Source of the DNA: Celerinatantimonas sp. YJH-8
GTDB taxonomy: Bacteria; Pseudomonadota; Gammaproteobacteria; Enterobacterales; Celerinatantimonadaceae
Reading direction: 5' to 3'
DNA length: 24,000 nucleotides
Assembly (NCBI RefSeq): GCF_046054165.1
Contig: NZ_JBFNXK010000009.1
Span: 49,263-73,262, forward strand
Part shown: positions 781 to 18,917 of the stretch, piece after piece
How the letters are laid out: every line of letters begins with the position of its first letter
How positions within the stretch are numbered: position 1 is the stretch's first letter
Translations under genes and position numbers: made by a program
The notes under the pieces: generated by a model
What the model was told of the DNA's origin: nothing
Database searches by the model: none
Seen by the model: only the letters and a program-made list of their open reading frames with translations

Positions 781-1024
781 GCCGAGTTTTGTGAACTTTT
801 TAACTTCACTTGAGAAACGTGAATCGCGCTACAAATGAGTATTAAAGTATCATACTGGTTGCTTTGTTCATTACTGCTGAAACACGTTTCTGGACAGAAA
901 CCATTTAGCATTTTTTACTGACAAAGCATTTTCATATTAGTAAAAGCCTGTGAAATAGTGATGTTTGTACACAAATGGAGTATAGTTTGTTAGAAAAGGC
1001 AAACGATGTGACTATACCAGCGAA

Positions 1025-1060
1025 AATGATACGGGGAGCCTAATGGCTCCCCGTATCATT
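1025..1060 (-). terminator. Rho-independent terminator downstream of the helicase gene
   Basis: Perfect 16-bp inverted repeat aatgatacggggagcc / ggctccccgtatcatt with loop taat. On the minus strand the GC-rich stem is followed by ATCATTTTCG. It lies 72 nt after the helicase stop at 1132. Confidence 0.7.
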
Positions 1061-1131
1061 GCGTCGTAACTATATAACCTAGTCCGCATACAATCGTGAT
1101 CTTCAAGAATCCACGAGATAATTTATAGATA

Positions 1132-4100
1132 CTATTCTCCAGATAACTGCTTCCAAACTTTCCGATAGTCATCACCTGACATTACTGCACCATTAGGTCT
1201 AAGTCTTGACCAATCATCAGAACTCAGAGTCCTGACATAGCTAGTAGCAACCGATGAAGACAACGCTATATTTGAGTCTCTGTACTGTTGCTTAAAATCA
1301 GCCCCTAAATTTTCAGCAATACTACGGGGAACGGAATTCATTCTCATCAGGACACCTTCATCTGTTCTGACACCATGATAAAGCATTGCTGGAAGGTTGT
1401 TCAGAACTCTAAGATCAGCCTCTGACAAACTATCGAAATCAATACCAGCTGTTGGCAGCTTACTTAATGCTGATAGACCCCAAGCACCATTATTCGCAAG
1501 GTCCCGATAAACAGCTTTACAAGCTTTAGACAAATTATTTGTTAGATCACCTTCATTAAAAAATCGAGCTGCAATCTCTTGAAGAGAAGCCCCGTCAACC
1601 CAAGCTTGAGTTATATCAGCTAATCGTTGATGACCAATACCATCACCACCGATTTCAGTTAAACTTTTTTGGAGTTGTGGTACTCGCATCATTATTCCCA
1701 TCAAATCAGGTAACGCAGATCGCCTTCCTTCATTTCCAAACAAGCTACTTGGTTGCCAATCTTCGATTGTTAATTTGTTTTCAAGATTATTGAGTTCTAA
1801 CAACGCAGTTCGAACCCCCTCCGGAGAAAAACCAGTTGAGTCCGCCAAAGCGGCATTTTCAGGATGCTCAGCAATTTGTCTAACATAACCTCGGGTAGCT
1901 TCAAGTAGAGCATCTGCTCGCTGCTGAGAATTCGCATCTGATTTAGCTCGCAGTGAGCTAAATCCATAGGTATTCCTCAAAAGTTGTTCCGCTTCAGCAA
2001 TAACCTCGTCAAGATTACGTTTCTCATTCCATAAGTGTGCTATATAACTACGAAAATCGGCCCATTGCTCTTGGTGAATTACCGCTGAGAGATCATTTAA
2101 ATCTCCAAGAGAATCAATTTCTTCAAGCATACTTACTAGACGCGAAAGGAGATCACCAGTAGCATCACGAACAAACTGTCTTATTTCATGAGGATTAGTT
2201 CCTGCTGCTATTCCAACCACACCAACGCTATCGTGGTCAATTCTTCCAGCTCGCCCAGCAAGATTCCAAAACTCACGAGACGACATTTTAACGCCATAAG
2301 GATACTTAGGACTTGCAAGAAAAACTGATGAAACTGGGAAATTTAATCCTTGAGCAATCGTTGTCGTTGCACACATGACTCTGACATGACCTTCTTCGGT
2401 TAGCCATTCAATAAGTGCTAGAGCTTCCGCAGGCAAACCAGCATGATGCACTACAACTCCTTTTTCTAGCATTCCTATAAGCTCAAAATCCGGACTAATT
2501 TCTGTACTTAGGAATCGTTGAACCAAAGCAATTTCCTCTGGAATCCTATCTAGAGGCTCAAGATCATTTGCTATTAATCTAGCAATACTCCACACATCAG
2601 GAATCTTTTGCGCAACAGCAATACTTGTTCCTCGTTTAGAAAAGACTTTGGCCATAGCAGCGGCCTGCTTTGATAAAGACTGGGCAGAGCTATAATTCAA
2701 ACTTCGAATAGGTCTAATACCATCCACATAGTGTTGTCCACGAAGATGAATTGTCCTTTGAGTGGTTGTTAAAGTCTCAAATGTTAACTTCCAATTACCA
2801 TTTCCTTCTGCGCGTTCCCTATTAAACAAACCAACAATTCTTTCGTTTGGTTGCCAAGCTGAAGTACTAAGACTAATACTCTTTCCTCTACCGGAACCAA
2901 GCCACTGTGCAAGTTCATTAGCATTTGGCACAAAAGGCATTAGCAACAAGAAGTTTGCTTTTGAAGCTTCTTGCTTAATGGTTGCCAACAGAAGCTCAAT
3001 ACGAAGGCCACGCTCTCTATCTTCTATGTTGTGTGCCTCATCCATTACTAATAGTGCTAATGGACGCTGAACCTTCCTATTGCGCATAACCAGTTGCAAC
3101 TTCTCTGGCGTTGCAACTAATACCTGAAAAGCATCATCTTCACTTAAAAGTGCATTTTCAAAAGCATCTACTTCAATCGCTCCTGTAAGTTGTTCAACCT
3201 TGATGCCAATTGGCCCAAAGTCAGAACGCAATCTCCTAGTGATCTGCGAAACAAGTGCCCGTGTAGGTGCAACATATGCAATCCATCCTCCATCATCAGC
3301 AAACTGATTTAGTGCCTGAAGCATTCTAAATTGAGCTAATTGGGTTTTACCTCCAGATGTAGGCATATCTATCACAACAGCCCGACTTGCAGGATCAAGC
3401 AGATTTTGCTCTTGCAATGCAGCTCTCTGAGGTGGTAATAACTCAAACATACTTTTATGACGAATAACATGGTCAACAAACCTAGTCACTCTAGAGTTCA
3501 CACTATGAGCAACCCACCAAAGAGAACCTTCGACCATTTTATGACTAGATACATGTAGCCAACGCAACAACATTTCTAACTTTGTATCAGAAGATATTTG
3601 TGCGGCTTTTAGAGCTGCTTCGAAATGCAGATCTAACTCTGATTCAATTGCTAATGGTTCTCCCTGAAGCATATATGTTGCAAGTCGTTCAGTTGCTTTA
3701 GCCCAATGATATAGGGAGATCAAACGAACCGCCTCACTTTGTTTGGTTGTACCTTGGGAGCTTTCTAAGAAAGCTCTTTCATGACTAGATTGATCATTAC
3801 GAAGACCTACAATAATTTCCGAAATTTGATCTAAATCGTCCCAAGAGCGTTTTCGAAGCAAGCGAATCCATGCATCAAACAAACGATAAACTACTCGCTT
3901 GTTCCATTCAACATCAACAACAGATGGACTCTGAACTTCTTGCTCATGCTTTTCAAACCAACGTCTCAGATCTGTCCATCGGTCACCTGCATATGCCAAC
4001 CCAGCCATGTGAAGGACATGAAATATACGCTGATCAGTATCTTCCGGAATAGGAAGTGCTCTCATTAAACTAAAAGCTTTATTGGCACCAGCTATCGCTA

Positions 4101-4362
4101 TATTTTTGATATTTTTCTCTACAGACGAAGGACTAAGCAGCATAGGTAGTCCTTCAATAGCCGCCAGCTCATATGCAGAGGCGACTTCCTCAATAGATAC
4201 ATAATCAATATTTACAGGTTCACTAGTAAACAAACTACCCAAAGCACTATTTACCAGACTATCTTTTGCTGCATCAAACGCCGCTTTACGAGTTTCGCCA
4301 TTGATAGACTGTACTGCCCAGTGAGTATCTACTGACTGCAACTGTTCAAATGATAAGGTCAT
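1132..4362 (-). CDS. Ski2/Hel308-like superfamily-2 DEAH helicase (1076 aa) with uncharacterised N-terminal (~305 aa) and C-terminal (~355 aa) regions; HamB-like candidate
   Basis: Motifs in order:
- pre-motif-I LLPPQRAAL;
- motif I MPTSGGKT (nt 3343-3366, checked on the sequence);
- motif Ia YVAPTRAL;
- VATPEKL;
- motif II DEAH (nt 3031-3042, checked);
- HHAGLP...ATTTIAQGLNFP (motifs IV/V);
- motif VI AGRAGR (nt 2242-2259).
The ATG at 4362 overlaps the upstream gene's TGA as ATGA. Confidence 0.9.
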   Translation of the reverse strand: MTLSFEQLQSVDTHWAVQSINGETRKAAFDAAKDSLVNSALGSLFTSEPVNIDYVSIEEVASAYELAAIEGLPMLLSPSSVEKNIKNIAIAGANKAFSLMRALPIPEDTDQRIFHVLHMAGLAYAGDRWTDLRRWFEKHEQEVQSPSVVDVEWNKRVVYRLFDAWIRLLRKRSWDDLDQISEIIVGLRNDQSSHERAFLESSQGTTKQSEAVRLISLYHWAKATERLATYMLQGEPLAIESELDLHFEAALKAAQISSDTKLEMLLRWLHVSSHKMVEGSLWWVAHSVNSRVTRFVDHVIRHKSMFELLPPQRAALQEQNLLDPASRAVVIDMPTSGGKTQLAQFRMLQALNQFADDGGWIAYVAPTRALVSQITRRLRSDFGPIGIKVEQLTGAIEVDAFENALLSEDDAFQVLVATPEKLQLVMRNRKVQRPLALLVMDEAHNIEDRERGLRIELLLATIKQEASKANFLLLMPFVPNANELAQWLGSGRGKSISLSTSAWQPNERIVGLFNRERAEGNGNWKLTFETLTTTQRTIHLRGQHYVDGIRPIRSLNYSSAQSLSKQAAAMAKVFSKRGTSIAVAQKIPDVWSIARLIANDLEPLDRIPEEIALVQRFLSTEISPDFELIGMLEKGVVVHHAGLPAEALALIEWLTEEGHVRVMCATTTIAQGLNFPVSSVFLASPKYPYGVKMSSREFWNLAGRAGRIDHDSVGVVGIAAGTNPHEIRQFVRDATGDLLSRLVSMLEEIDSLGDLNDLSAVIHQEQWADFRSYIAHLWNEKRNLDEVIAEAEQLLRNTYGFSSLRAKSDANSQQRADALLEATRGYVRQIAEHPENAALADSTGFSPEGVRTALLELNNLENKLTIEDWQPSSLFGNEGRRSALPDLMGIMMRVPQLQKSLTEIGGDGIGHQRLADITQAWVDGASLQEIAARFFNEGDLTNNLSKACKAVYRDLANNGAWGLSALSKLPTAGIDFDSLSEADLRVLNNLPAMLYHGVRTDEGVLMRMNSVPRSIAENLGADFKQQYRDSNIALSSSVATSYVRTLSSDDWSRLRPNGAVMSGDDYRKVWKQLSGE

Positions 4363-5165
4363 ACATTGTCCTCACCATTCATTGCTGATTGTGCTAGTGT
4401 CGGCAAATTTAAGATATTACCAGTAGGAATATGTATCGCATGCAGCTCTATATTCGTTGCTACGGGACAGTTGTTGGCAAGAGCACTGGCTTTTCCACGA
4501 AGATCTGTCTCTTGAGGCGTAGTATCACGAATAAGTACACCATACACAGCTATATCCGTACCACTTGACTGAAAATAACGTTTAGCTGCACTTTGAAATT
4601 TGCATTGCCAAGGTTTACCTATGGCATGCCGTCCTAAATATTTCACTAGATCTATCTTTACTCTCTTATCATCACGTAAACCAAACAATTGGTTTCCTAG
4701 ACTAGTCATAACACTTGGCGGTGAGCTTTGAGAATAAGATGTCTTAACTTCGCCAAAACTAAAACGATAAGGTAGCTCTTGATCATTAACTCGTTGAAGT
4801 CCTGTTAAGTCGCATCCCGCAGGGCTTGCATTAGAATTTTTTAGATCTCTGGATGTTGGCCATGGATATTCACATCCTCCGCGTTCTGAGACAAAAGCTT
4901 CTGCAATTGCTTCTCCAACCAACCAGTCTTCAAACTCATAATCTTCAGCAAGTACTTGCGCTAATTCGGCATGTTCAAAATCTGTAGTAATAAGACCAGC
5001 AAGTAATCCTTGGAGTTCTTCTTGACCAGTCGTATCCCGCAAAATAGTTTTCACTGGACCAGAAAGAATCAGGTCTAGTTGATGAGCTGTATAGGAAATG
5101 CCATAAGCAACAACTGGAGGTGTACTGACATCATATTCTAGAGTATAAGCAGGCATAGCCATCAC
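4359..5165 (-). CDS. Hypothetical 268-aa protein with a PD-(D/E)xK nuclease-like signature; HamA (DUF1837)-like candidate effector
   Basis: Uninterrupted ORF. Possible starts are GTG 5165, ATG 5162 or ATG 5156, with AGGA 6-9 nt upstream. The motif order is typical of restriction-endonuclease-fold enzymes: a helix Glu (WLVGEAIAEAF), D119 in GCDLTG (codon 4809-4811) and E139-V-K141 in FGEVKTS (4743-4751). It has a 4-bp overlap with the helicase gene. Confidence 0.75.
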   Translation of the reverse strand: MMAMPAYTLEYDVSTPPVVAYGISYTAHQLDLILSGPVKTILRDTTGQEELQGLLAGLITTDFEHAELAQVLAEDYEFEDWLVGEAIAEAFVSERGGCEYPWPTSRDLKNSNASPAGCDLTGLQRVNDQELPYRFSFGEVKTSYSQSSPPSVMTSLGNQLFGLRDDKRVKIDLVKYLGRHAIGKPWQCKFQSAAKRYFQSSGTDIAVYGVLIRDTTPQETDLRGKASALANNCPVATNIELHAIHIPTGNILNLPTLAQSAMNGEDNV

Positions 5166-5614
5166 TAGATATCCTGCTTACAAGAACAAGAGAAAACTAT
5201 TTTATTCAAAGTATTACCCTTACATTATCTACGTACTGTTAAGTAACCCATGATAAACTCAATATATGTTACCATTTCATATTGATCAAAACTGAATCCA
5301 GCAGTAGCACACGACACCTTTACACCAAAAACTATTTAAAAATAGGCGTATCTACTTACCAGCGCTGATTAAATACATCACCTATCATATTTTCTAAGTT
5401 AAATTTTACGAGATTAATAACATAAACCCAAGTTCAAAAAGTCATGCAAGGTATCAGATAGAGCGCCAAATCAAAGAAATAATTACATATAAATCTGGTA
5501 AGGCCTGAAATTTATCGATACAGTAGGATTACAAAAAGTAAGTTTTTACACCACTTTAACCGCCATATTGATAGATTTAACTAAAACACAATGGGGCAAA
5601 ACCGTCTTAGAAAC

Positions 5615-5640
5615 GGCAGCGTACCGATGCGATCGCTGCC
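5615..5640 (-). terminator. Candidate terminator of aegA
   Basis: Stem ggcagcg / cgctgcc (7 bp, 12-nt loop). On the minus strand it is followed by GTTTCTAAGACGGTTTTG. A second small hairpin (gcccctc gagt gaggggt, 5700-5717) sits directly after the aegA stop but lacks a U-tract. Confidence 0.35.
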
Positions 5641-5739
5641 ATTTTAGGATGATACTTTAACACTCAGTATGAGACTTTGTTACTCTCCCACGATGCTCAG
5701 CCCCTCGAGTGAGGGGTGATTTACCTTAAGCGGGATCAG

Positions 5740-7719
5740 TTATGCCTGAATATAATTCAGGATCCCTTCTGCCGCATGACGGCCATCCGCTAAGGCCGTT
5801 ACCACTAAATCAGCCCCGCGCACCGCATCACCACCGGCAAAAATTTTCGGATTAGAAGTCTGATAACTGTATCGGCTATCCACTCGGGCATCAATGTTAT
5901 GCCAACGCCCCAGTTGAACCCCCTGTTCCACCAGCCAAGGCATTTCATGGTTTAAGAAACCAAAGGCAACAATCACCGCATCGGCAGGCATTACAAACTC
6001 CGAACCTTCAATCGGTTCTGGTCGACGCCGACCATCAGCACCCGGTTCACCTAACTGCGTCCGTAACATCCGGATCCCACTGACAGCCCCGGTTTCATCC
6101 AGCTCAATATTGATAGGTTGTACATAAAATTCAAATTCAACCCCTTCCTCTTTCGCATTCTTAACTTCTTTGCGAGAGCCCGGCATATTGGCTTCATCCC
6201 GGCGATAAGCACAAGTAACTCGGGTGGCTCCCTGACGAATCGCGGTACGCACACAATCCATCGCGGTATCACCACCGCCCAGAACCACCACCTGTTGACC
6301 CGATAAATTAATATAAGGCTCTTTCGGATCTTCCGGCAGGTTCATCAGAGAACGCGTATTGGCCATCAAATAAGGCAGCGCTTCAAATACCCCCGGAGCA
6401 TCTTCATTCGCCAGACCGGCCGCCATTGGTTTATATGTTCCAACCCCGACAAATACCGCATCATATTCTGACAACAAATCAGATAACTGAACGTCTGTTC
6501 CGACGTCACACCCCAGACGGAATTCGATCCCCATCTCGGTGAAAATCTCCCGGCGCCGAGCCAGAACCGATTTATCCAACTTGAAGGATGGGATCCCAAA
6601 TGTCAGCAAGCCACCGATTTCAGCATGGCGATCAAACACCACCGGTTTCACACCATGTCGGATCAAGACATCGGCACAAGCTAATCCAGCTGGACCGGCA
6701 CCAATAATGGCGACCCGTCGATCCGTCATCATGACCCCACTCAGATCAGGTTTCCAACCTTTAGCAAAAGCCTGCTCTGAAATAAAACGTTCAATATTTC
6801 CAATGGTCACGGAACCTGATTTTTCTTTTAAGGTACATCCGCTTTCACATAACCGATCTTGAGGACAAATCCGCCCGGTAATTTCAGGCATACAGTTGGT
6901 CTGGTGTGATAATTCAACCGCCTCATCAATCCGCCCTTCCTGAACTAAACGGATCCATTGTGGAATATGGTTGTGCAGTGGACATTTCCACTCACAAATA
7001 CTGTGCTCACCACAGGTTAAACAACGCCCACTCTGGCTATCGGCTCGTTTTTCATCGAAGGTGATATACAGTTCATCAAAACCTTTTTTACGAAGCTCCA
7101 GATCAATCTTATCCGGATCCTGACGGGATGAAGAGTGTTCCAGTAAAGTCACTTTATTAATTCGATGTGCGCTTGGCGCCGCAGTATCAACAACCGGTTC
7201 ACTCTGGGTATGCCAAGGCAACGCCGACTGCAAGGCATTATTGCGACGTTTTTCAGCAGCGCTATCCGACAGCATCTGCTCGGTCATCAGTGACAAGGCC
7301 TGATTAGGGCAGTTTTCAACACAAGCCGGGCCACCCTCACGATCCACGCATAAATCACATTTGAGCGCCATCGCCTTCACCTGATGCTCAGCAATCGGCC
7401 GAGTCACCACTTCAATTGCCCCGAAGGGACAGTTGACCTCACATGCTTTACACCCGATACATCGCTGCTGATCAATATGGATCCCATCATCCAGCCGTTG
7501 GATGGCACCATTTGGACACCCCTGTAAACAAGGAGCATCCTCACAATGGTGACATGTAATCGCCGTATTAATTTGCTCAGATTTAATCACATGAATACGA
7601 GGAAAAAACTGATCCGCAGTTAATACATGTTGACCATCGTTATGTGCCATGACACAGGCAACTTCACAGGCATGACACCCCAAACATTGCTTTGGATTTA
7701 CAATTATAAATTGATTCAT
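5740..7719 (-). CDS. aegA: AegA-type oxidoreductase: N-terminal multi-4Fe-4S ferredoxin module fused to a GltD-like NAD(P)H/FAD domain
   Basis: Several CxxCxxCxxxCP clusters (CLGCHACEVAC, CIGCKACEVNCP, CDLC...CVENCP). The GltD-like part carries VAIIGAGPAGLACA and VVVLGGGDTAMDC dinucleotide folds and ends in FAGGDAVRGADLVVTA. It is collinear with my recollection of E. coli AegA. I use the ATG at 7719 (MNQFIIVNPKQCLGC, 659 aa) instead of the track's TTG at 7755. Confidence 0.9.
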   Translation of the reverse strand: MNQFIIVNPKQCLGCHACEVACVMAHNDGQHVLTADQFFPRIHVIKSEQINTAITCHHCEDAPCLQGCPNGAIQRLDDGIHIDQQRCIGCKACEVNCPFGAIEVVTRPIAEHQVKAMALKCDLCVDREGGPACVENCPNQALSLMTEQMLSDSAAEKRRNNALQSALPWHTQSEPVVDTAAPSAHRINKVTLLEHSSSRQDPDKIDLELRKKGFDELYITFDEKRADSQSGRCLTCGEHSICEWKCPLHNHIPQWIRLVQEGRIDEAVELSHQTNCMPEITGRICPQDRLCESGCTLKEKSGSVTIGNIERFISEQAFAKGWKPDLSGVMMTDRRVAIIGAGPAGLACADVLIRHGVKPVVFDRHAEIGGLLTFGIPSFKLDKSVLARRREIFTEMGIEFRLGCDVGTDVQLSDLLSEYDAVFVGVGTYKPMAAGLANEDAPGVFEALPYLMANTRSLMNLPEDPKEPYINLSGQQVVVLGGGDTAMDCVRTAIRQGATRVTCAYRRDEANMPGSRKEVKNAKEEGVEFEFYVQPINIELDETGAVSGIRMLRTQLGEPGADGRRRPEPIEGSEFVMPADAVIVAFGFLNHEMPWLVEQGVQLGRWHNIDARVDSRYSYQTSNPKIFAGGDAVRGADLVVTALADGRHAAEGILNYIQA

Positions 7720-7978
7720 ATTGAGTCTTTTTTCTAAGCCGAGACAAGCTCCCAACAGATCATCGAAATCATATCAACACAAGAGGCACAGTGCCGATAC
7801 AATAGATCGAGATGAGTTTTGTCTTAATAATGAAGAATTATCTTATTTATTGTTATTTATTAGGTAGTTGCAATCGCTTTGAAATGATATATACAACATA
7901 CCTTTCATGAATTACGCCATCAACATGACATAGAAAAGAGGGGTTGTCGCTTATCTTATGTGACATTTTAAAGTTCGG

Positions 7979-7992
7979 TTGATCTGAATCAA
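7979..7992. promoter_or_regulatory. FNR-type box TTGATctgaATCAA upstream of aegA
   Basis: Exact match to the FNR consensus TTGAT-N4-ATCAA. On the minus strand TAAGAT lies about 21 nt downstream of the box, which is class-II-like spacing. The box is about 260 nt upstream of the aegA ATG. Confidence 0.5.
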
Positions 7993-8290
7993 GATGCACC
8001 GAAAAAACAAATTTGGGGGGAAACACTATAAATACCAATTATTTATAGCATAATACACTATTACTAATCCTCTTGATGCCTCGATCGACTTCTCTGTCCC
8101 GGGTTCACAGGGATTCACCAGTCAGAATACGCTCGCTCATGCGCCACGCCAAACGCAGAGGCTCAAAGCTCCGAAGCCTTCATAATCGCCAATTTATGAA
8201 TAAAATCACTTGCTTCTATATCGCAATTTTATCATTTTAAGAATATTGCCTGCTGTGATAACTTGGCGCTCATTCAACAGAATAATCGGG

Positions 8291-9202
8291 ATGGATAACT
8301 CATCAATGATGCTGCGTAAAAATTTCGCCGACTTATTATCCTTTCAAGTCGTCGCTCGTGAAAAGAATTTTACTCGAGCTGCCGCTCAACTCCGGCTCTC
8401 TCAGTCAGCTCTGAGTCACTCGATTCGAGCCCTAGAGGAACGGATCGGAGTCCGTCTACTAAATCGAACCACTCGTCGGGTTTCTCTCACGTTGGCCGGG
8501 GAGCAGCTATTAAAAACTTTAGATCCCCATCTGGCTGAAATTGAAAATACGATCCAACAAATCGGTGCGAATCAGAACAGCCCTCGAGGATTAATTCGGC
8601 TCAGTACCACCGATCATGCCGCCAATACCGTACTATTGCCCAGACTGGCTCCGTTTATGCGCAAATATCCGGATATTCACATTGAAATCAATGTGCAGAA
8701 CCGTTTTATCGATATTGTTTCAGAACGTTTTGATGCCGGGATCCGCTTTGGTGATGATATTGCTCAAGATATGGTTGCGGTCAAACTCACCGGTGACATG
8801 CGCATGGCACTGGTCGGATCACCTGAATATTTTAAACATCAACCGGAACCTAAAACCCCTTATGATCTCTCGGAACATTCCTGTATCAACCTGCGATTGA
8901 TGTCGACTGGCAGTTTGTATAATTGGGAATTTAAAAAAGATAACCATGAATTCAGTGTTCCGGTCAACGGCGCTTTTACAGCCAACACCTCACAGCTGAT
9001 TATTAATGCGGCCCTCAATGGTGTGGGGCTCGCTTATGTTCCGGAAGATTTAATCATGGACGATATTCAAACTGGGAAATTAGTCCACGTTCTCGAAGAT
9101 TGGAGCCCCTATTTCCCAGGCTATTATCTCTATTATCCCAGCCGTCGCCAGCACAATACGGCCTTTTTGCTACTGCTGGAAGCCTTGCGTCATCATGAAT
9201 AG
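8291..9202 (+). CDS. LysR-family transcriptional regulator
   Basis: N-terminal HTH LLSFQVVAREKNFTRAAAQLRLSQSALSHSIRALEERIG followed by a LysR substrate-binding domain. The track start at 8210 is a TTG that adds an implausible leader. ATG 8291 is preferred, and ATG 8306/8309 are possible. Stop TAG at 9200-9202. Confidence 0.88.
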   Translation: MDNSSMMLRKNFADLLSFQVVAREKNFTRAAAQLRLSQSALSHSIRALEERIGVRLLNRTTRRVSLTLAGEQLLKTLDPHLAEIENTIQQIGANQNSPRGLIRLSTTDHAANTVLLPRLAPFMRKYPDIHIEINVQNRFIDIVSERFDAGIRFGDDIAQDMVAVKLTGDMRMALVGSPEYFKHQPEPKTPYDLSEHSCINLRLMSTGSLYNWEFKKDNHEFSVPVNGAFTANTSQLIINAALNGVGLAYVPEDLIMDDIQTGKLVHVLEDWSPYFPGYYLYYPSRRQHNTAFLLLLEALRHHE

Positions 9203-9207
9203 TTTCC

Positions 9208-9240
9208 TTCCCCTTTCATCTTGCTGAGCAGAAAGGGGAA
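9208..9240. terminator. Hairpin between the convergent LysR and LacI-family genes
   Basis: Perfect 10-bp stem ttcccctttc / gaaaggggaa with a 13-nt loop, lying between the stops at 9202 and 9249. No clear U-tract on either strand. Confidence 0.4.
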
Positions 9241-9248
9241 CGATAAAT

Positions 9249-10265
9249 TCAGGCATTCATTTGCGGGACACCCACCGAATCTCGCACAATCAATTCACCT
9301 TCAATCGCCTGCGTAGTTGCAGCCGGTGGCTCCCCTAGCAGATGTAATATAGCCTGTTCGACCATCGCCCGAATCGGCACATTCACTGTCGTCAATGACG
9401 GATAGCTATATCGGCTCATGGTACTGTTATCAAAACCAGCAATGGAGACATCTTCCGGGATCCGCAGCTTGGCTTCACGCAGTGCCCTCATCGCTCCGGT
9501 CGCCATATCATCATTACCCGCTAAAATGACTGTAAAAGGTACGTTTCGGGAGAGTAGCGTCTTGCCAGCCAAATAACCACTTTCGGTTGACCAGTCTCCG
9601 GGCACAATCAACTGTTCATCCGGTTCAATACCATATTCCTTTAATTTATCCAGATAAGCACTAAATCGAGCTTGGCCACTGGGCGAATGCGCTCGCCCCT
9701 GGATAAAGGCAATGCGCCGATGCCCTTGACTCAAGATATAGTCCATCATCGCCTGAGCACTTTGATAATGATCCATCACCACATAGTCGGAGTCGTTCCC
9801 GGGAAGTTGCCGATTAATCACCACAATCGGGGTTTGATTCTTGGCAATGATTTCTGCGAGCTCATCACCAGAGAGATATTCGGGATAAATTAAAATCCCG
9901 GCACAACGCATATCCAGCAAAAAATCGATGGCTCGACGCTCATCATCAGCACTATGCTTGCCATCGGCTAACATTAACTGATGCTGATACGTTTCACTGA
10001 AAGACGCCGCCGCATACACAAATGATGAAAAATAAGGGCCATTATATAAACCGTTGGTCATAATGAGTCCCAGCAGATTCGTTTTCTGAGTGGCCATCTG
10101 CCGAGCCAATAAATTAGGTCGATAACCGGTTTCTTCAATCGCTCGATAAACCAGCTCTTTCACTGCATCACTGACGATATTTTTACCGTTGAGCACTCGT
10201 GATACCGTTGCCTTTGAAACGCCCGCTTTTTTTGCCACATCAAGCATTGTGATCATGGTTGTCAT
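9249..10265 (-). CDS. LacI-family transcriptional repressor (probable beta-glucoside operon regulator)
   Basis: N-terminal HTH MLDVAKKAGVSKATVSRVLNGKN followed by a periplasmic-binding-protein-like sugar-binding core. AAGG lies 6 nt before the ATG at 10265. The gene is last in the bglF-bglA string. Confidence 0.9.
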   Translation of the reverse strand: MTTMITMLDVAKKAGVSKATVSRVLNGKNIVSDAVKELVYRAIEETGYRPNLLARQMATQKTNLLGLIMTNGLYNGPYFSSFVYAAASFSETYQHQLMLADGKHSADDERRAIDFLLDMRCAGILIYPEYLSGDELAEIIAKNQTPIVVINRQLPGNDSDYVVMDHYQSAQAMMDYILSQGHRRIAFIQGRAHSPSGQARFSAYLDKLKEYGIEPDEQLIVPGDWSTESGYLAGKTLLSRNVPFTVILAGNDDMATGAMRALREAKLRIPEDVSIAGFDNSTMSRYSYPSLTTVNVPIRAMVEQAILHLLGEPPAATTQAIEGELIVRDSVGVPQMNA

Positions 10266-10290
10266 CTGACCTTATCATTCCTATCAATCA

Positions 10291-10316
10291 CAGAGCCGGA
10301 TTAAAATCCGGCTCTG
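10291..10316 (-). terminator. Hairpin or partial terminator after bglA
   Basis: Perfect 10-bp stem cagagccgga / tccggctctg with a 6-nt loop, 8 nt after the bglA stop. The minus-strand tail is TGATTGAT, a weak U-tract. Confidence 0.55.
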
Positions 10317-10323
10317 ATATTAT

Positions 10324-11766
<1,443 letters not shown>

Positions 11767-11781
11767 TTAATTTCCTCTTTG

Positions 11782-13665
11782 TTAATGTGAAAGTTGTAAA
11801 ACAGGTTGACCCAATGTGATGTTCTGCGCATCCGTCATCGGATTGAGCGTAAATTCATCACTATTGACCACTAAAAATGGGGTCGTTAAGTCATATCCTG
11901 ACTGCTGAATTTTATCTTTTTCAAAATAAATCAATGGATCACCTGTTTTCACGCGATCGCCTTCGTGAACAACAGTGTTAAAATATTGACCTTTCAAATT
12001 TACCGTATCTAATCCGACATGGATCAAAAGTTCGGCCCCATTATCACTGGTTAATCCAACGGCATGCTGTGAATCAATAACCGAAGAAACAACCGCATCG
12101 CAAGGGGATTTCACGACCCCATCGTTTGGTGTAAAAGCAACACCATCCCCCAGCATTTTCTGAGAAAACATCTCATCATGGACCTGATCTAACGCCATTA
12201 ATGAACCATTGACCGGACTGACTAAAGTTAATACCGCCGTTGCATGAGAACCTTGTGACTCAGGTGTCGCCGCAGATTCAACGCTATCTTCTTCGGGTTG
12301 CGGATCATCAAATCCCACCCAATACACCAGAATGATGGTCACCACAATCGCCACGATCGAGCCTGCTATTTCACCGATAAATGAACTGGGATTTTCAGCA
12401 CTAATCGCATTCACCGTTGTTAAAATACTCGGAAGCCCGGCATACACATAATAATAGCTGCCAAATAAACTCACGACGACCGCACCGACCGCCCCACCGA
12501 TACAACCGCAGACAAATGGTTTTTTCAGTCGTAAGGTCACCCCATAGATGGCCGGTTCAGTAATTCCGAAGACCCCGGTTAGCCCGGCAGAAAAACAAGT
12601 GGTTTTAAAGAGCTTGTTCCGACTGCGAAATCCACAGGCAAAGGCCGCCGCCATTTGTCCGATAACCGCAACAGTCTGAAAAGCCTGAAACGAATCATGA
12701 CCGTAAACCTGGAAATTGGCAAACACCACTGGCGTGATCCCCCAGTGAACGCCAAAAATCACGATAATTTGCCAAACGCCGCCAATAACCGCAGCCGCCA
12801 ATGGCGGAAATAAGGCATACAGCCAGTTGTATCCTTGCGCAATCCAGGTAGCAATTTCTGTAGTTACCGGACCAATCACGACCAGTGTCAACGGCACCAT
12901 AATGGCCACACAGATCAACGGGGTAAATAAAGCTTTAACGACATCCGGTAAAATTCGTTCAACCCAGCGTTCAACCCAAGATAACCCCCAAACTAAAAAT
13001 ATCGGTGGTAATACCGATGAGGTATAAACCACTTTAGATAACGGTAATCCAGCAAAGGTGATCGATTGTCCCTGTGCAATCTCAGCCGCCATCTTGGCCC
13101 ACTCTGGATTAATCAGTGCACAACAGCAAAAAACCGAAATAAATGGATTACATTTAAAATGTTTGGCTGCGGTAATCCCGATAAATACCGGGAGGAAACT
13201 AAAGGGGGTCCATGAAATAAAATTAAGAACATTAAAGGCCCCGGTATGTATAAATTCCGGGAAAGCCAGTTTCGACAGAATTAAAATCCCCTGTAGGATC
13301 CCAGCGGCCGCCAAAATATAAATGACCGGCGCAAAAATGCCTGCCATCGCCGCAATCAATGAATCCAGAATCCCTTTTTTTGCGACATTGGCACTGGCCA
13401 TCAAACTCACATTGACCAATCCAGATATGGCCTCATAAACATCACCGACATGAGTTCCAATAACAACCTGAAATTGTCCACCTGCCAAAATAACTGTAAT
13501 CACGCCCGGCAATTTTTTAATCCGTTCAACAGCCGTGTCCGGGCACGTTTTAAGCTCTAACCGAAGCCGGGTCGCACAACGGTTAATACTGACTAAATTA
13601 GCTTCTCCTCCTACCTCCTGGAGAATATCCTGTGCTAACTTCGAATAATCTCTTATTTTCGCCAT
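11782..13665 (-). CDS. bglF: PTS beta-glucoside-specific EIIBCA component
   Basis: EIIB active-site motif CATRLRL near the N-terminus, a polytopic EIIC core, and a C-terminal EIIA-Glc domain (LIHVGLDTVNLKGQ). 627 aa, against 625 aa for E. coli BglF as I recall. A 15-nt gap with an RBS separates it from bglA. Confidence 0.88.
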   Translation of the reverse strand: MAKIRDYSKLAQDILQEVGGEANLVSINRCATRLRLELKTCPDTAVERIKKLPGVITVILAGGQFQVVIGTHVGDVYEAISGLVNVSLMASANVAKKGILDSLIAAMAGIFAPVIYILAAAGILQGILILSKLAFPEFIHTGAFNVLNFISWTPFSFLPVFIGITAAKHFKCNPFISVFCCCALINPEWAKMAAEIAQGQSITFAGLPLSKVVYTSSVLPPIFLVWGLSWVERWVERILPDVVKALFTPLICVAIMVPLTLVVIGPVTTEIATWIAQGYNWLYALFPPLAAAVIGGVWQIIVIFGVHWGITPVVFANFQVYGHDSFQAFQTVAVIGQMAAAFACGFRSRNKLFKTTCFSAGLTGVFGITEPAIYGVTLRLKKPFVCGCIGGAVGAVVVSLFGSYYYVYAGLPSILTTVNAISAENPSSFIGEIAGSIVAIVVTIILVYWVGFDDPQPEEDSVESAATPESQGSHATAVLTLVSPVNGSLMALDQVHDEMFSQKMLGDGVAFTPNDGVVKSPCDAVVSSVIDSQHAVGLTSDNGAELLIHVGLDTVNLKGQYFNTVVHEGDRVKTGDPLIYFEKDKIQQSGYDLTTPFLVVNSDEFTLNPMTDAQNITLGQPVLQLSH

Positions 13666-13692
13666 GATGCCCTCTTTATTCGAATAAGTTTA

Positions 13693-13706
13693 TGAAACCG
13701 ATTTCA
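13693..13706. promoter_or_regulatory. LacI-family operator 1 (TGAAACCGATTTCA)
   Basis: 14-bp near-palindrome fitting the LacI/GalR-family pattern TGnAAnCGnTTnCA. It lies 28-41 nt upstream of the bglF ATG. Confidence 0.6.
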
Positions 13707-13730
13707 AACATGAATTTGAACCCATCGCTT

Positions 13731-13744
13731 TGCAACCGGTTTCA
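13731..13744. promoter_or_regulatory. LacI-family operator 2 (TGCAACCGGTTTCA)
   Basis: Second 14-bp near-palindrome with the same pattern, 38 bp centre-to-centre from operator 1. Confidence 0.55.
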
Positions 13745-14591
13745 AATAGAGGTGTGCGACTGATCGCTATTTGATGAAGTTATTTGTAAGAAATGAGCGG
13801 CAAGATCACAGAATGTGATAAGCCTTAAAAACCATCCTGATAGGATCAAGCAAAGGTCATATCCGATGCCATTTATCCGGAGCACCCAGCGTCTTTGGGA
13901 TGCGAAAAGCCATAGCTCTCGATACAAAATTACCGGCTGCGGGCCACCCCTGAAAATCGTGATCACGCAGCATCGATGCAGCGTCGTCATCTTTCTGGAG
14001 CTACCATTGGGACTCATGAGTTCTCGCTATAATTCATAACTTTTTATTACAACTCATTCCGTTGCATTACTTTAAATAAAACATTTATTCTACAAATAAT
14101 AACCTGTTGCAAACATCGTCATACAAAATACAACCGTTACAGTTAATATAGGTGGGTTTAAGCTATCGCAAGCTACCTCATCGCCTTAATGATCCATATA
14201 ACGCTAACGCGCGAAGATGACGGAAGCGAGAGCCAGCTCAAGTATTTAACAAGTTATTTATAAGATAATCACATATATTTAAAGACTTCTTGTATGTGCT
14301 CTATGTTCAGTGGTTGAGCATCTGATTCTGAACTATGTTTTCATCCCAATTACGGCCTGAAAGCATGATCTCAACTGTCTGAATAGGCCTTAGGAGTAAA
14401 GCTGAAAGTTAGCGGTGGTGAATCCGATAGAATTGCAGTGTTTGGCCACATTTATCTGCACATGGCCGACATGTTATAGCTGCTTCTCCCCTTTCACTTT
14501 CTGTCTGACTGCTGTTTATAACGATGGATGAAAGATTATCTCAGGTAATCACCGCATCCTAACAATAACGAGATAGATAAAGGAGAATGCC

Positions 14592-15983
14592 ATGGCTTAC
14601 GCCACTACCAATCCTTATACAGGGGAACTCATTAAAACGTTTCCGGATGCAACTGATGAAGAAGTCAGTCAGGCATTGGAAACCGGGCATGCCGCTTTTC
14701 TCGAATGGAAAACGACTAGTTTTGAAACCCGTCGGACAATTCTTCAAAAAGCCGCCGACTTGCTTCGTCAGGATTCCACCAAATACGCAAAATTACTCAC
14801 TCTCGAAATGGGTAAACTCTTAGCTGAAGCCGAAGGTGAAGTTGAACTCTCCGCTAAAATTCTCGAATACTACGTCCAGAATGCCGAAAAACTTTTAGCA
14901 CCGGAACCCCTTCCTGTTGAAGATCCAGCCGAAGGCCAAGCCGAACTCGTCCATGAACCGTTAGGGATCATTCTGGCCATTGAACCTTGGAACTTCCCAT
15001 TTTATCAAATCGCCCGTATTCTGGCGCCCCAACTATCGGCCGGAAACGTATTGCTCCTTAAACACGCTTCGAACGTTCCCCAATGTGCCCATGCATTTGA
15101 ACAACTAATGCTAGATGCCGGGTTACCGAAAGGTTGCTTTAAAAATCTGTACGCGACTCGTTCTCAAATCGAAATGATCCTGAATGACCGCCGGGTACAC
15201 GGTGTGGCCCTGACCGGTTCAGAAGGCGCTGGGGCGATTGTCGCATCGCAAGCCGCCAAAGCGCTGAAAAAATCCACTATGGAACTGGGTGGCGCCGATG
15301 CATTTGTGATCCTAAAAGATGCCGATCTTCCCAAAACGACCCAGTGGGCTGTTTTTGGTCGTCACTGGAACGGCGGACAGGTCTGCGTTTCCTCAAAACG
15401 AATGATTGTCGTAGACGATGTTTATGATGAATTTTTAAAAGGTTATCAAGAAGGTGTAGCGGCTTTGAAAATCGGCGATCCGATGGATCCAGCCACTACT
15501 CTGGCGCCACTTTCATCCAAAGGGGCTGCTGATGAAGTGCGTCATCAGATTCAAGAAGCGGTCGCCCATGGTGCAACCGCAACTGAAGTTGGCCCGAAAG
15601 TTCCTGAAGATACCGCGTTCGTTCAGCCAACTATTCTGACTGGCTTAACACCAGATAATCCAGCCTACTACTGGGAATTCTTCGGTCCAGTATCCTTAAT
15701 CTTTAAAGCCAAAGATGAAGCAGAAGCCATTGCCATAGCGAATGATTCTCCATTTGGTCTGGGGGGGTCCGTTTTCACTCAGGATCTGAAACATGGTAAA
15801 GAAGTCGCACAGCAAATTTCAACCGGGATGGTTTTCGTCAACCACCCAACCATGGTGAAAGCCGATTTGCCATTTGGTGGTATTCGCCGCTCCGGTTATG
15901 GCCGGGAGTTACTGGGCTTAGGCCTGAAAGAGTTTGTAAACCACAAACTGATCGACGTCGTTGATATCGATGCTCCATTCTAA
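14592..15983 (+). CDS. NAD(P)+-dependent aldehyde dehydrogenase, Sad/YneI-like succinate-semialdehyde dehydrogenase family
   Basis: AAAGGAG RBS 6 nt before the ATG at 14592. Motifs PWNFP, catalytic Glu in MELGG and catalytic Cys in GQVCVSSKR. 463 aa, collinear with my recollection of E. coli YneI. Confidence 0.9.
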   Translation: MAYATTNPYTGELIKTFPDATDEEVSQALETGHAAFLEWKTTSFETRRTILQKAADLLRQDSTKYAKLLTLEMGKLLAEAEGEVELSAKILEYYVQNAEKLLAPEPLPVEDPAEGQAELVHEPLGIILAIEPWNFPFYQIARILAPQLSAGNVLLLKHASNVPQCAHAFEQLMLDAGLPKGCFKNLYATRSQIEMILNDRRVHGVALTGSEGAGAIVASQAAKALKKSTMELGGADAFVILKDADLPKTTQWAVFGRHWNGGQVCVSSKRMIVVDDVYDEFLKGYQEGVAALKIGDPMDPATTLAPLSSKGAADEVRHQIQEAVAHGATATEVGPKVPEDTAFVQPTILTGLTPDNPAYYWEFFGPVSLIFKAKDEAEAIAIANDSPFGLGGSVFTQDLKHGKEVAQQISTGMVFVNHPTMVKADLPFGGIRRSGYGRELLGLGLKEFVNHKLIDVVDIDAPF

Positions 15984-16006
15984 TGCTCCTAAATGATTCA
16001 CCGATC

Positions 16007-16036
16007 AAAAGAGCCGCTGTTGCGGCTCTTTTCTTT
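16007..16036. terminator. Bidirectional rho-independent terminator
   Basis: Perfect 11-bp stem aaaagagccgc / gcggctctttt with loop tgtt. The plus-strand tail is TTTTCTTTG and the minus-strand tail is TTTTGAT. It lies between the convergent dehydrogenase and cupin genes. Confidence 0.85.
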
Positions 16037-16079
16037 GATAGATACCCGCATTGCAAGCAGGATAGATGCGGCCTTTAGC

Positions 16080-16397
16080 TCAGGCCATTGTGGTCCCCTC
16101 TTTTTCAGCATGGGCGACATAAACAGAATCTTCCAATGCGGCAATCGTATGCACCTTATCCTGAGGAATTTTTAATTTTTGTCCGGCCTGTAGTTGCTTG
16201 CGATTAATCGCTAATGTTCCCTGTAAGACTTCTATTTTTTCCCATCCCGGATGCGAGTGTGCCGGTAAAGCACACGCTTTAGCCATTTTGACAACATAGA
16301 CCGCTTGAGCAATATCCTGCCGATGGATCACACTGAAAAAAATGCCTTCAAACTGGCTGGGTTGCCAGTGATCAATTTTAGAAAGATCAATCTGCAT
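16080..16397 (-). CDS. Small cupin-domain protein (WbuC-like size and fold class)
   Basis: Cupin metal motif PAHSHPGWEKIEVLQG followed by a later His (KVHTIAALE). GGAGG RBS 5-9 nt upstream of the ATG at 16397. The track's extra first codon (16398-16400) is a TTG. Confidence 0.75.
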   Translation of the reverse strand: MQIDLSKIDHWQPSQFEGIFFSVIHRQDIAQAVYVVKMAKACALPAHSHPGWEKIEVLQGTLAINRKQLQAGQKLKIPQDKVHTIAALEDSVYVAHAEKEGTTMA

Positions 16398-16516
16398 CAA
16401 ACCTCCCTCCCCTCATAACGCCTCTCAAGACTGCGGATCAAGATCACCCAGTCTTTTATCATTCTCTTGTAAAGACAATACGCTATCGAGGAAGGCGGCG
16501 TCCATTCCAATCAATA

Positions 16517-16547
16517 GCTCCATCGCAACATTTTGCCGCGATGGAGC
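16517..16547 (-). terminator. Candidate terminator after eptA
   Basis: Perfect 10-bp stem gctccatcgc / gcgatggagc with an 11-nt loop, 49 nt after the eptA stop. The minus-strand tail is TATTGATTGG. Confidence 0.5.
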
Positions 16548-16595
16548 CTCATGAATAGATGAATACTGAACATTATCAAGACGAAGAACAGCTAT

Positions 16596-18233: not shown

Positions 18234-18598
18234 CGTACGACCAGAATCAAAACCCAGGTAAGAATAGCCAGACAGATCGCAACCAACACCGCTGCTGACC
18301 CTAAATCTTTCGCTAAACCGCTTAACTCATGCCAATCCGGACCGATGCGATCCACCACAGCCTCAATCGCTGAATTTAGGAGCTCACAAATGATGACGCC
18401 CACCAAACTAGATATCATTAAAATCTGTTCCACCACAGTAACGGGCAGAAAAAAAGAAATAATAATCAATGGGATAGCGACCATCACCTCCTGACGAAAA
18501 GCAGCCTCATTTTTCCAGGCAAAACGAAATCCCTGAATTGAATAACGGGTTGCATAAATAATTCGGCTCACGCCAGTTCGCGTATGTGCTTGGTGCAT
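18230..18598 (-). CDS. dgkA: Diacylglycerol kinase
   Basis: 122 aa. WKNEAAFRQE and LNSAIEAVVDRIGPDWHELSGLAKDLGSAAV closely match my recollection of E. coli DgkA. A strong RBS, TAAGGAGG, precedes the ATG at 18598. Confidence 0.93.
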   Translation of the reverse strand: MHQAHTRTGVSRIIYATRYSIQGFRFAWKNEAAFRQEVMVAIPLIIISFFLPVTVVEQILMISSLVGVIICELLNSAIEAVVDRIGPDWHELSGLAKDLGSAAVLVAICLAILTWVLILVVR

Positions 18599-18715
18599 AG
18601 CTACCTCCTTAACTTAAGCTATGGATCCTTGGCTCAATAAAACGATGGCAAGTTGTTGATTATTCTCTTCATCATAACAACCGCCATAGTTAGCCCCATA
18701 TCGTAATAAACAACT

Positions 18716-18732
18716 CTTAAGATAAACTTAAG
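18716..18732. promoter_or_regulatory. PmrA/BasR-type direct-repeat box CTTAAG-ataaa-CTTAAG upstream of dgkA-eptA
   Basis: Exact fit to the PmrA box consensus YTTAAK-N5-YTTAAK. It lies 118-134 nt upstream of the dgkA ATG, in a 320-bp AT-rich spacer next to a PmrA/QseB-subfamily response regulator gene. Confidence 0.55.
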
Positions 18733-18917
18733 AAACAGCCCTAAATAAAAGATAGTTTAAAAAAATATGACAGGACATAAATTTGATAAAAAATTTTTAA
18801 GAATATGCTTTTTAAACAACATGTTATTTATACATGTTTAAATGGAATATGAGAGATTCCGTAGTCGATTGATGCCAAAATGAAAGTAAATTATTAGATT
18901 TATTTTTAATTTGGAAC

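Follow-up and report, generated by a model that had tools for sequence, protein, structure and literature searches.

A probable divergent Hachiman-type anti-phage pair, catalogued as PDC-M23, between the remnants of Tn7-like ends in Celerinatantimonas sp. YJH-8

A stretch of 24,000 nucleotides from Celerinatantimonas sp. YJH-8 (contig NZ_JBFNXK010000009.1, positions 49,263–73,262 of the forward strand), the whole of which is called here the window and provides all coordinates given below, carries two overlapping genes, A and B, for a small nuclease-like protein and a large helicase. We consider it likely that this pair represents a divergent anti-phage system of the Hachiman type, which belongs to the family catalogued as PDC-M23, acts by a mechanism similar to that of ECOR31 HamAB and was brought as cargo of a Tn7-like element. 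In the texts searched, no statement linking PDC-M23 with Hachiman was found. In the databases both products are present as 100% identical records of the same strain, annotated as a hypothetical protein and a DEAD/DEAH helicase. The features that constitute the pair are:

4359–5162, minus strand: gene A, 267-residue HamA-like nuclease of predicted PD-(D/E)xK type, PADLOC family PDC-M23A; alternative GTG start at 5165

1132–4362, minus strand: gene B, 1076-residue HamB-like superfamily 2 (SF2) helicase of Ski2/Hel308 type, PADLOC family PDC-M23B

4359–4362, minus strand: ATGA overlap of the A stop and B start codons (read as ...aat gta TGA / ATG Acc...)

Two minus-strand genes overlapping by ATGA were already described in an earlier reading of this DNA made from the letters alone (the sequence-only reading), and both open reading frames (ORFs) together with their overlap are indeed readable in the sequence. 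Overlap of this type implies translational coupling of A and B. The listed ORF of gene A starts from GTG and occupies positions 4359–5165 of the minus strand (268 amino acids, aa), while ATG at 5162 is the start in every homologue and the PADLOC model is aligned from residue 2 of A. Translation therefore probably yields a protein of 267 aa. A helix Glu, D119 and E139-x-K141, which the sequence-only reading had picked out in a 268-aa protein, are all present and invariant, but with the start at ATG 5162 the numbering decreases by one and the last three become D118, E138 and K140. Both products have the size usual for their families: about 265–270 aa for A and about 1076–1090 aa for B.

Dedicated PADLOC models recognised the two proteins almost from end to end. 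A matched PDC-M23A (PDLC04529) with E = 6.1e-104, residues 2–264 being aligned with positions 1–263 of the 265 in the model, and B matched PDC-M23B (PDLC04531) with E = 0, residues 13–1076 being aligned with positions 4–1060 of 1060 (1057 of the 1060 positions). Judging by these alignments, family-model matches of such strength (6e-104 and E = 0) are far beyond chance and the pair is a full-length, high-scoring member of PDC-M23. This family is one of 145 phage defence candidates picked out by their position inside BREX, DISARM or type I restriction–modification (R-M) loci, an approach called “guilt by embedding” (Payne et al. 2024, bioRxiv 10.1101/2024.01.29.577857), and it is mentioned there only in the supplement, as cassette CAS_00096 (FAM_02460>>FAM_00699). 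Our literature search likewise found PDC-M23 absent from main texts and present in the supplementary cassette list only. It is a purely bioinformatic label with no described fold or mechanism. Embedding, which served for the discovery of these candidates, was registered for relatives of the pair (in type I R-M loci) and not for the window copy, which is solo and lies outside R-M.

What A may be was suggested by its predicted structure. The AlphaFold model is confident, with a predicted local distance difference test score (pLDDT) of 89.9 and a predicted template-modelling score (pTM) of 0.88. Foldseek comparison with the PDB gave HamA 8vx9_A as the best match (E = 7.7e-5, probability 1.0, template-modelling (TM) score 0.57/0.58), and the matches with E < 0.1 were HamA chains only: 8vx9_A, 8vxy_A and 8zue_A, the last of which, the chain of AbpA, was the third best (E = 1.2e-3, probability 0.99), while the next match in the list had E = 0.15. 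In the viral library (BFVD) the sole significant match was again a protein annotated as HamA (3.3e-4, TM 0.56). The expectation of a nuclease fold in the small protein was, therefore, borne out by structure prediction and Foldseek. ECOR31 HamA has G83-E84, D119 and E138-x-K140, and A of the window has G83-E84, D118 and E138-x-K140, so that in the model it has the HamA fold with a PD-(D/E)xK core and D-E(x)K residues at HamA positions. E138A/K140A of HamA is the published nuclease-dead mutant in which defence is abolished (Tuck et al., Cell 2024, PMC12278908). In 54 homologues of A, with identity down to 33%, E84, D118 and E138-x-K140 are invariant, and these four residues are putatively catalytic.

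Regions of HamA that contact HamB comprise residues 30–63, loop 102–117 and residues 159–199 (Tuck et al., PMC12278908). Predicted counterparts of these helices and of the loop are found at the same positions of A, where the model has helices at 26–71 and 151–198. The sole internal segment of low confidence (residues 106–115) falls within PWPxxRDLKNxxASPAGxDLTG, which is invariant in the family, is its most conserved motif and distinguishes A from HamA in the putative interface loop. Such a combination is as would be expected of a segment ordered only on the partner. Several members of the family are longer (P0377, 684 aa; P0501, 452 aa; P0414, P0427 and P0470, about 340–354 aa) and bear the A domain at the C-terminus. 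Their N-terminal extensions (70–420 residues) contained no Pfam domain, and these proteins could be either real fusions or gene-calling artefacts.

Gene B provides the second line of evidence. The complete SF2 core of Hel308/Ski2 type, as claimed for the 1076-aa protein from the letters alone, is there with all its motifs: PPQ (310–312), GGKT (337–340), PTRAL (366–370), TPEK (418–421), DEAH (441–444), ATTTIAQGLNFP (665–676) and AGRAGR (702–707), and their key residues are invariant or nearly so in 40 homologues. Pfam finds DEAD, ResIII and Helicase_C domains in it. About 20 PADLOC models of HamB1/HamB2 matched B with E-values down to 5.5e-65, some of the matches exceeding the core (B residues 194–721 and 275–958), and by sequence B matched 8vx9_B at 2.8e-25 (residues 303–716 on 302–713). 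In the predicted model (pLDDT 79.4) the following regions of B are seen:

Residues ~1–300: all-helical N-terminal domain

Residues ~328–500: RecA1

Residues ~507–546: beta insertion

Residues ~557–720: RecA2

Residues 724–1076: helical C-terminal region

The top Foldseek matches of this model were the HamB chains 8vx9_B, 8vxa_A and 8vxy_B (template-modelling score TMq 0.71–0.72, ~1190 aligned columns), with E = 1.1e-24 and TMq 0.72 for 8vx9_B. From end to end, the N-terminal helical domain included, the predicted architecture of B thus resembles that of ECOR31 HamB (TM 0.72).

Since the core of B also resembles Hel308, Pol-theta, Brr2 and Ski2, and the module lies between Tn7-like ends among metabolic and regulatory genes, one can assume that the pair is not immune at all and serves repair or recombination as a helicase-nuclease, performs a housekeeping function like Hel308 or works for the transposon. 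We consider this very unlikely. Hel308, Hjm, Pol-theta and Brr2 gave TMq of 0.39–0.50 (~0.45 for Hel308 and Pol-theta) and were aligned with core and ratchet only. The NCBIfam cut-offs for Hel308 equivalogs (887–1216 bits) were far from being reached, as B scored 105–135 bits and only within residues 292–719. The closest structural relatives of both proteins are HamA and HamB, which are defence proteins, and the pair has a sporadic distribution over distant phyla, unrelated genera carry near-identical copies of it, and its flanks vary. The full-length match to HamB together with the low Hel308 scores characterises B as a helicase of HamB type with its accessory domains, rather than a generic Ski2/Hel308 protein.

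As a whole, the pair repeats the order of ECOR31 Hachiman (PDB 8VX9/8VXA/8VXY; PMC12278908), where the gene of a small nuclease comes first and that of a large Ski2-like SF2 helicase comes second, and its subunits have comparable sizes (267 + 1076 aa versus 259 + 1174 aa in ECOR31 HamAB). In contrast to HamB, the helicase of the window has a beta-rich insertion at ~507–546 and its own conserved C-terminal region. Combination of a nuclease with a Ski2-like helicase is also a feature of AbpAB, the Hachiman variant of E. coli K-12 (PDB 8ZUE). AbpA, however, has 531 aa, a Cap4-like nuclease domain at its N-terminus and inactive residues in its HamA-like domain (PMC11914072), while A consists of one minimal domain, in which the D-ExK motif is intact.

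A number of observations weigh against the assignment to Hachiman. In the Pfam scan at E ≤ 1 the signature of DUF1837 (PF08878) was absent from A of the window and from all 54 members of its family, and none of the PADLOC HamA models matched the window protein. The profile of the A family, applied to PDB sequences, missed HamA 8vx9_A at E ≤ 10, and hhalign estimated the relatedness of this family to the 50-member family of B. cereus-type HamA with a probability of 0.4%. The match in fold is moderate (TM about 0.57, root mean square deviation about 8 Å), and A and B are only 10–16% identical to the subunits of the one solved and characterised homologue from which we infer complex formation and the trigger. 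There is no neighbouring defence gene in the window. Payne et al. explicitly left the 145 candidates untested (bioRxiv 10.1101/2024.01.29.577857), some PDC candidates that were tested proved to be inactive, and the literature search revealed no paper in which PDC-M23 was tested or interpreted.

The gap between A and HamA in sequence is real, since canonical HamA controls passed the same tests. HamA of B. cereus, taken as a positive control, was recognised by PF08878 (5e-15) and by PADLOC HamA1 (5e-107), and the profile of canonical B. cereus-type HamA recovered ECOR31 HamA (8vx9_A) at 7e-18. For eight selected proteins PF08878 was absent also at E ≤ 10. Pfam and NCBIfam searches with A gave nothing, the NCBIfam result being equally blank for the canonical HamA control, which means that this library cannot judge HamA membership. 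BLASTP and global alignment of A with HamA were not significant and stayed at noise level (z = 0.8), and a tblastn search with A found nothing similar in phage genomes. One member of the family (P0110) has weak matches to PADLOC HamA1 (7e-4 and 1.7e-3). Precomputed flags of PF08878.17 on P0071, P0081, P0109 and P0110 were not reproduced even at E ≤ 10, and the same is true for the hits supporting the name “Anti-bacteriophage protein A”, which some members bear in UniRef. Membership of the small protein in DUF1837, which the sequence-only reading had considered but could not confirm, thus fails in Pfam, in PADLOC HamA models and in hhalign, all of which the canonical control passes. Its second supposition, that in this case the pairing should be undescribed, did not hold either: the pair was listed in 2024 as candidate PDC-M23, and A is still HamA by its fold. 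In comparison with Hachiman as currently defined, i.e. by HamA with DUF1837, the pair lacks the sequence feature and possesses the architectural and structural ones. A differs from HamA in being unrecognisable as DUF1837 by the sequence methods tried, while canonical HamAs detect each other easily.

The sequence-only reading had made the co-occurrence of homologues of the pair a check of its proposal. Genetic linkage turned out to be strict. A pattern scan, in which each species was represented by one genome, gave 367 loci with relatives of A, 80 of which were fetched. A full-length homologue of B followed directly 3' of A on the same strand in all 79 testable loci (in the 80th, left out, the contig ends 13 bp past A). 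The overlap of 4 nt between A and B was found in 63 of 71 related loci. Across 72 loci, identities of A and B to the window proteins correlate with r = 0.92, although A evolves faster (mean identity 45% versus 59% for B). HMMER scanning of 1.84 billion representative proteins registered 611 clusters, counted at 50% identity, with E ≤ 1e-3 and 295 with E ≤ 1e-30, and the best 150 of the 611 matches, which were listed, are all strong family members. Relatives were found in at least 367 species. Their hosts include Gammaproteobacteria, Desulfobacterota, Planctomycetota, Verrucomicrobiota, Firmicutes and one ANME-1 archaeon, and the Vibrio and Providencia relatives have 86% (A) and 88–89% (B) identity to the pair of the window. 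Judging by this distribution, the pair is a horizontally mobile module.

Flanks of the pair are highly variable: 414 flanking proteins fell into 313 clusters, the few large ones being HsdM (28 loci), HsdS (26 loci) and two types of HsdR (13 and 12 loci). Subunits of type I R-M were found within three ORFs in 33 of the 79 loci and were always co-oriented with the pair. In 11 of the 79 the pair is embedded between hsdM/S and hsdR, in 9 it stands directly after hsdR-M-S, and in several (L001, L002 and L004, for instance) the first base of A is also the last one of the hsdS ORF. In about 40% of loci the pair and hsdRMS run in the same direction, often with overlapping stop and start codons, and in this frequent operonic association with type I R-M the family differs from ECOR31 Hachiman. 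Loci in which the pair and type I R-M genes form one operon include L001, L002, L004–L009 and L029 (about 4800–10001), L036, L042, L048, L058 and others. They have two layouts, with hsdR-hsdM-hsdS directly upstream or with hsdM-hsdS upstream and hsdR downstream. In three loci the same R-M operon contains a gene for a YhcG-type PD-(D/E)xK nuclease.

Based on this context one can suppose that the pair does not act as an autonomous defence system but assists type I R-M as an accessory module, which, for instance, processes or amplifies breaks made by HsdR, and that the copy in the window is then an orphan with little or no function. The number of R-M neighbours, the hsdS genes ending at the first base of A and the fact that the family was first picked up through R-M embedding are all in line with such a role. 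We consider it unlikely, because no R-M subunit is encoded near the pair in 46 of the 79 loci or in the window, other copies reside beside Gabija-like or CBASS systems or on islands without R-M, and the solo copy of the window keeps intact ORFs and all catalytic motifs. Moreover, canonical Hachiman is a two-gene system, and embedding in R-M loci is, according to Payne et al. (bioRxiv 10.1101/2024.01.29.577857), shared by many autonomous systems.

Other settings of the pair also belong to defence or to mobile elements. In Vibrio parahaemolyticus (L089–L091), where A is 76% identical to that of the window, genes for a Gabija-like OLD-TOPRIM ATPase and a UvrD helicase are located within 170 bp after the pair (in L089 the defence cluster occupies 10001–18057), and the element also carries genes for DUF927 (primase-like), HTH_17 and MobI proteins. 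The locus thus unites defence genes in a compact cluster carried by a mobile element. In Enterobacteriaceae the pair resides in an island with AlpA, HTH_3, insertion sequence (IS) transposase and Bro-N genes beside yicG/ligB, and once it was found at a different chromosomal position. A conjugative Rhizobium plasmid carries a distant relative of B directly beside a type II CBASS operon. The idea that homologues should occupy variable defence or mobile settings, not conserved housekeeping ones, has, therefore, been substantiated by R-M operons, Gabija-like and CBASS neighbours, islands and variable flanks.

On the Rhizobium etli plasmid pRetMIM1e (L082, 4740–8712), at a locus adjoining type II CBASS, the helicase matches PDC-M23B at 1e-177, and it is preceded and overlapped by a gene for a 284-aa protein with no PADLOC or Pfam match. 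This protein was tried as a homologue of A and rejected, as no relatedness to A was detectable. It has a stretch “IQVKGT...RRPPGE” where A has “GEVKTS...SPPSVM”, and it could represent a nuclease partner that has diverged even further.

Taken together, the PDC-M23 match, structural homology to HamB and HamA, strict linkage and defence or mobile contexts sustain the view that the window carries a Hachiman-like or variant nuclease-helicase module, as the sequence-only reading had proposed, and by analogy the pair probably works like Hachiman. The mechanism of ECOR31 HamAB (Tuck et al., PMC12278908) was taken as a model. According to it, A and B would be made in a fixed ratio via the ATGA-coupled junction and would form a heterodimer, in which the nuclease is restrained by the N-terminal helical domain and the helicase body of B. 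The contacts may be formed by the N-terminal helices of A, its conserved loop 100–117 and helices 151–198. Translational coupling, the co-variation of A and B (r = 0.92) and the conserved loop segment of low confidence at 106–115 lend such a heterodimer indirect support. Such a complex would survey DNA, and damaged or free-ended DNA appearing in the course of phage infection may serve as a trigger. ATP-driven movement of B would then release or activate A, which would degrade DNA indiscriminately using E84, D118, E138 and K140 and thereby abort infection. It is by analogy with ECOR31 that we infer that A and B form a complex, sense DNA damage, act as a nuclease and protect against phages.

Hachiman is normally identified via DUF1837 of HamA, and a sizeable clade that keeps the fold, the catalytic geometry and HamB would escape this signature. 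Surveys should, therefore, undercount Hachiman. PDC-M23 may be re-filed as “Hachiman-like”, with a concrete testable mechanism and obvious point mutants, and coupling to R-M suggests a possible two-layer arrangement, in which restriction is followed by clearance triggered by DNA damage. For specialists this is a useful refinement, not a surprise. A broader supposition, to which we give a small chance, is that PDC-M23 constitutes a clade of Hachiman beyond the recognition by DUF1837, maybe wired to type I restriction, and that, independently, there are Tn7-like defence cassettes devoid of tns genes. If so, DNA ends made by HsdR or products of stalled translocation could be the “damage” signal activating the HamB-like helicase. 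Limited restriction would thus be converted into complete DNA clearance, while solo copies would respond to phage damage directly. The tns-less cassettes, exemplified by the element of the window and the complete 2.9-kb one of L100, would be moved in trans and could deliver defence modules next to conserved genes, at the 3' end.

Acquisition of the pair by this genome is suggested by the surroundings of the two genes. GC content (the share of G and C) of the module is 0.41 versus 0.48–0.49 in the neighbouring gene, and a 21-nt inverted repeat (836–856 and 5646–5666, 19 of 21 positions) brackets it. The repeat occurs twice in the window, while shuffled sequences give none expected. The features found around the two genes are:

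821–856, plus strand: Tn7-like left-end remnant, consisting of the innermost ~22-bp site (836–856) and ~15 nt before it

1021–1060, minus strand: terminator-like hairpin with a 16-bp perfect stem and a 4-nt loop, followed by UUUU

5163–5579, minus strand: AT-rich leader/promoter region of the A-B operon, delineated by composition and promoter scan

5580–5692, minus strand: Tn7-like right-end remnant with terminus CGTGGGAGAG at 5692–5683 (canonical TGTGGGAGAG), aligned with 10 metagenomic right ends

Scanning of metagenomes revealed the same 21-mer in 26 contigs, always within one of two conserved architectures. The right-end architecture has TGTGGGAGAG followed by two or three contiguous units of ~22 bp (AGTAATAAAGTnTCATAC), and the left-end one has the same TGTGGGAGAG terminus and three spaced units over about 150 nt. 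Complete left ends with three spaced sites over about 150 nt are present in L093, L097 and L100. The repeat was also considered as a chance coincidence or a site of some regulator and rejected in this capacity, as in these 26 contigs it sits in conserved end architectures of Tn7 type. In locus L092 glmS (609 aa, SIS and GATase domains) is followed by the right end ~40 nt past its stop codon and then by TnsA (PF08721/PF08722). Insertion downstream of glmS is the classic arrangement of Tn7 at attTn7, and the order glmS, right end, TnsA allows the repeats to be considered as TnsB-type sites of a Tn7-like family.

Both ends in the window are decayed. The right end faces inward and is located 47 nt past the stop codon of an aegA-like gene; it retains two contiguous subterminal sites of ~22 bp reaching 5646 and then a conserved hairpin-containing segment, with CGT at the terminus instead of TGT. 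Of the left end a single site remains. Its outer ~115 nt, i.e. two further sites and the terminus, are missing, and this part would fall within an intact histidine kinase gene. Neither the interval between the ends nor the rest of the 24-kb window contains tns genes. Judging by the sequence, the decayed Tn7-like element of 4.87 kb holds nothing but the A-B operon together with its leader and terminator. Tn7-like transposons commonly carry defence cargo, and Hachiman was found in 43 of such elements (Benler et al., mBio 2021, PMC8649781). Judging by its remnants, the element of the window may share with the defence-carrying Tn7-like transposons described there asymmetric ends of TGT type with arrays of ~22-bp sites, and it resembles them in the location of the right end just past the stop codon of a conserved gene and in putative defence genes as cargo. 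It differs from them in the absence of tnsA/B/C/D, truncation of the left end, the mutated terminal base of the right end and size of only 4.87 kb. By analogy with glmS for Tn7, the 3' end of the aegA-like gene may be a dedicated attachment site of a transposon subfamily. The GC-rich hairpin GCCCCTC GAGT GAGGGGT at 5700–5717, between the aegA-like stop codon and the right end, is probably the own terminator of this gene preserved through the insertion. In L100 (2560–5560; ERZ1673961.45) complete left and right ends lie 2.9 kb apart with no transposition genes between them and enclose only genes for a GntR-type regulator and a GH4 glycosidase, which suggests that non-autonomous mini-elements devoid of tns genes exist in this Tn7-like family.

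The low GC content, the close relatives in Vibrio and Providencia and the bracketing remnants of Tn7-like ends argue for horizontal transfer. The module would have arrived as Tn7-like cargo, the ends having decayed since then and the transposition genes being absent, so that for this genome it may be regarded as a horizontally acquired defence cassette left by a Tn7-like element. None of the 91 other loci with the pair contained the 12-mer of the transposon end, which also means that the pair is not a function of the transposon. Truncation of the left end, C instead of T as the terminal base of the right end and the lack of tns genes make it conceivable that the module itself has lost its function and is decaying on the dead transposon that carried it. 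To our mind this is extremely unlikely: both ORFs have family length and keep all invariant residues, the overlap, leader and terminator are intact, and cargo need not decay together with its vehicle.

The sequence-only reading had noted an AT-rich upstream region and a strong terminator, and both are present, though it missed that both lie inside the decayed Tn7-like element. The hairpin is located 72 nt past the stop codon of B, and its inverted repeat arms (1025–1040/1045–1060) form a perfect stem of 16 bp. Its folding energy is −33.1 kcal/mol (z = −8.1), and none of 200 shuffled sequences folded equally well. A scanner with a strict terminator consensus made no call at 1025–1060, the T-run being short. 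The gene-free stretch 5' of A (5166–5739, 574 bp) has GC of about 0.37, and the composition profile gave 0.37 for the interval 4501–5500 versus 0.48–0.49 in the neighbouring gene. Promoter-like sites in the leader are no more numerous than expected by chance. The best of the sigma-70-like ones is TTGATC-17-TATATT (5289–5261), and its assignment as a promoter is tentative. At the nucleotide level, homology to the Vibrio loci (78%) is confined to 1131–5165, i.e. to the two ORFs; it ends at 5165, and the leader is not conserved in comparison with these loci.

The remaining genes of the window are mostly metabolic or regulatory. On the left, the histidine kinase gene ends at 780 on the plus strand and is intact within the window, running off its left edge. 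ORF 211–780 was considered as a truncated fragment of this kinase with HATPase only and rejected, as the frame is open from base 1 of the window and contains the H-box AHELKTPIAEL. On the right, the aegA-like gene for an Fe-S/FAD oxidoreductase (5740–7755, minus strand) is followed by genes for a LysR regulator, a cluster of LacI, GH1 and phosphotransferase system (PTS) genes and an aldehyde dehydrogenase gene. Farther to the right, eptA-dgkA with a two-component system and then other metabolic genes are located. Neither tRNA genes nor Rfam RNAs were found in the window. GC content decreases to 0.36 around 18–19 kb. In the region 16596–20991 (minus strand) an EptA-type phosphoethanolamine transferase and a diacylglycerol kinase are encoded next to a pair of sensor kinase and response regulator, and in gene content the region resembles a pmrCAB-like locus of lipid A modification (polymyxin resistance).

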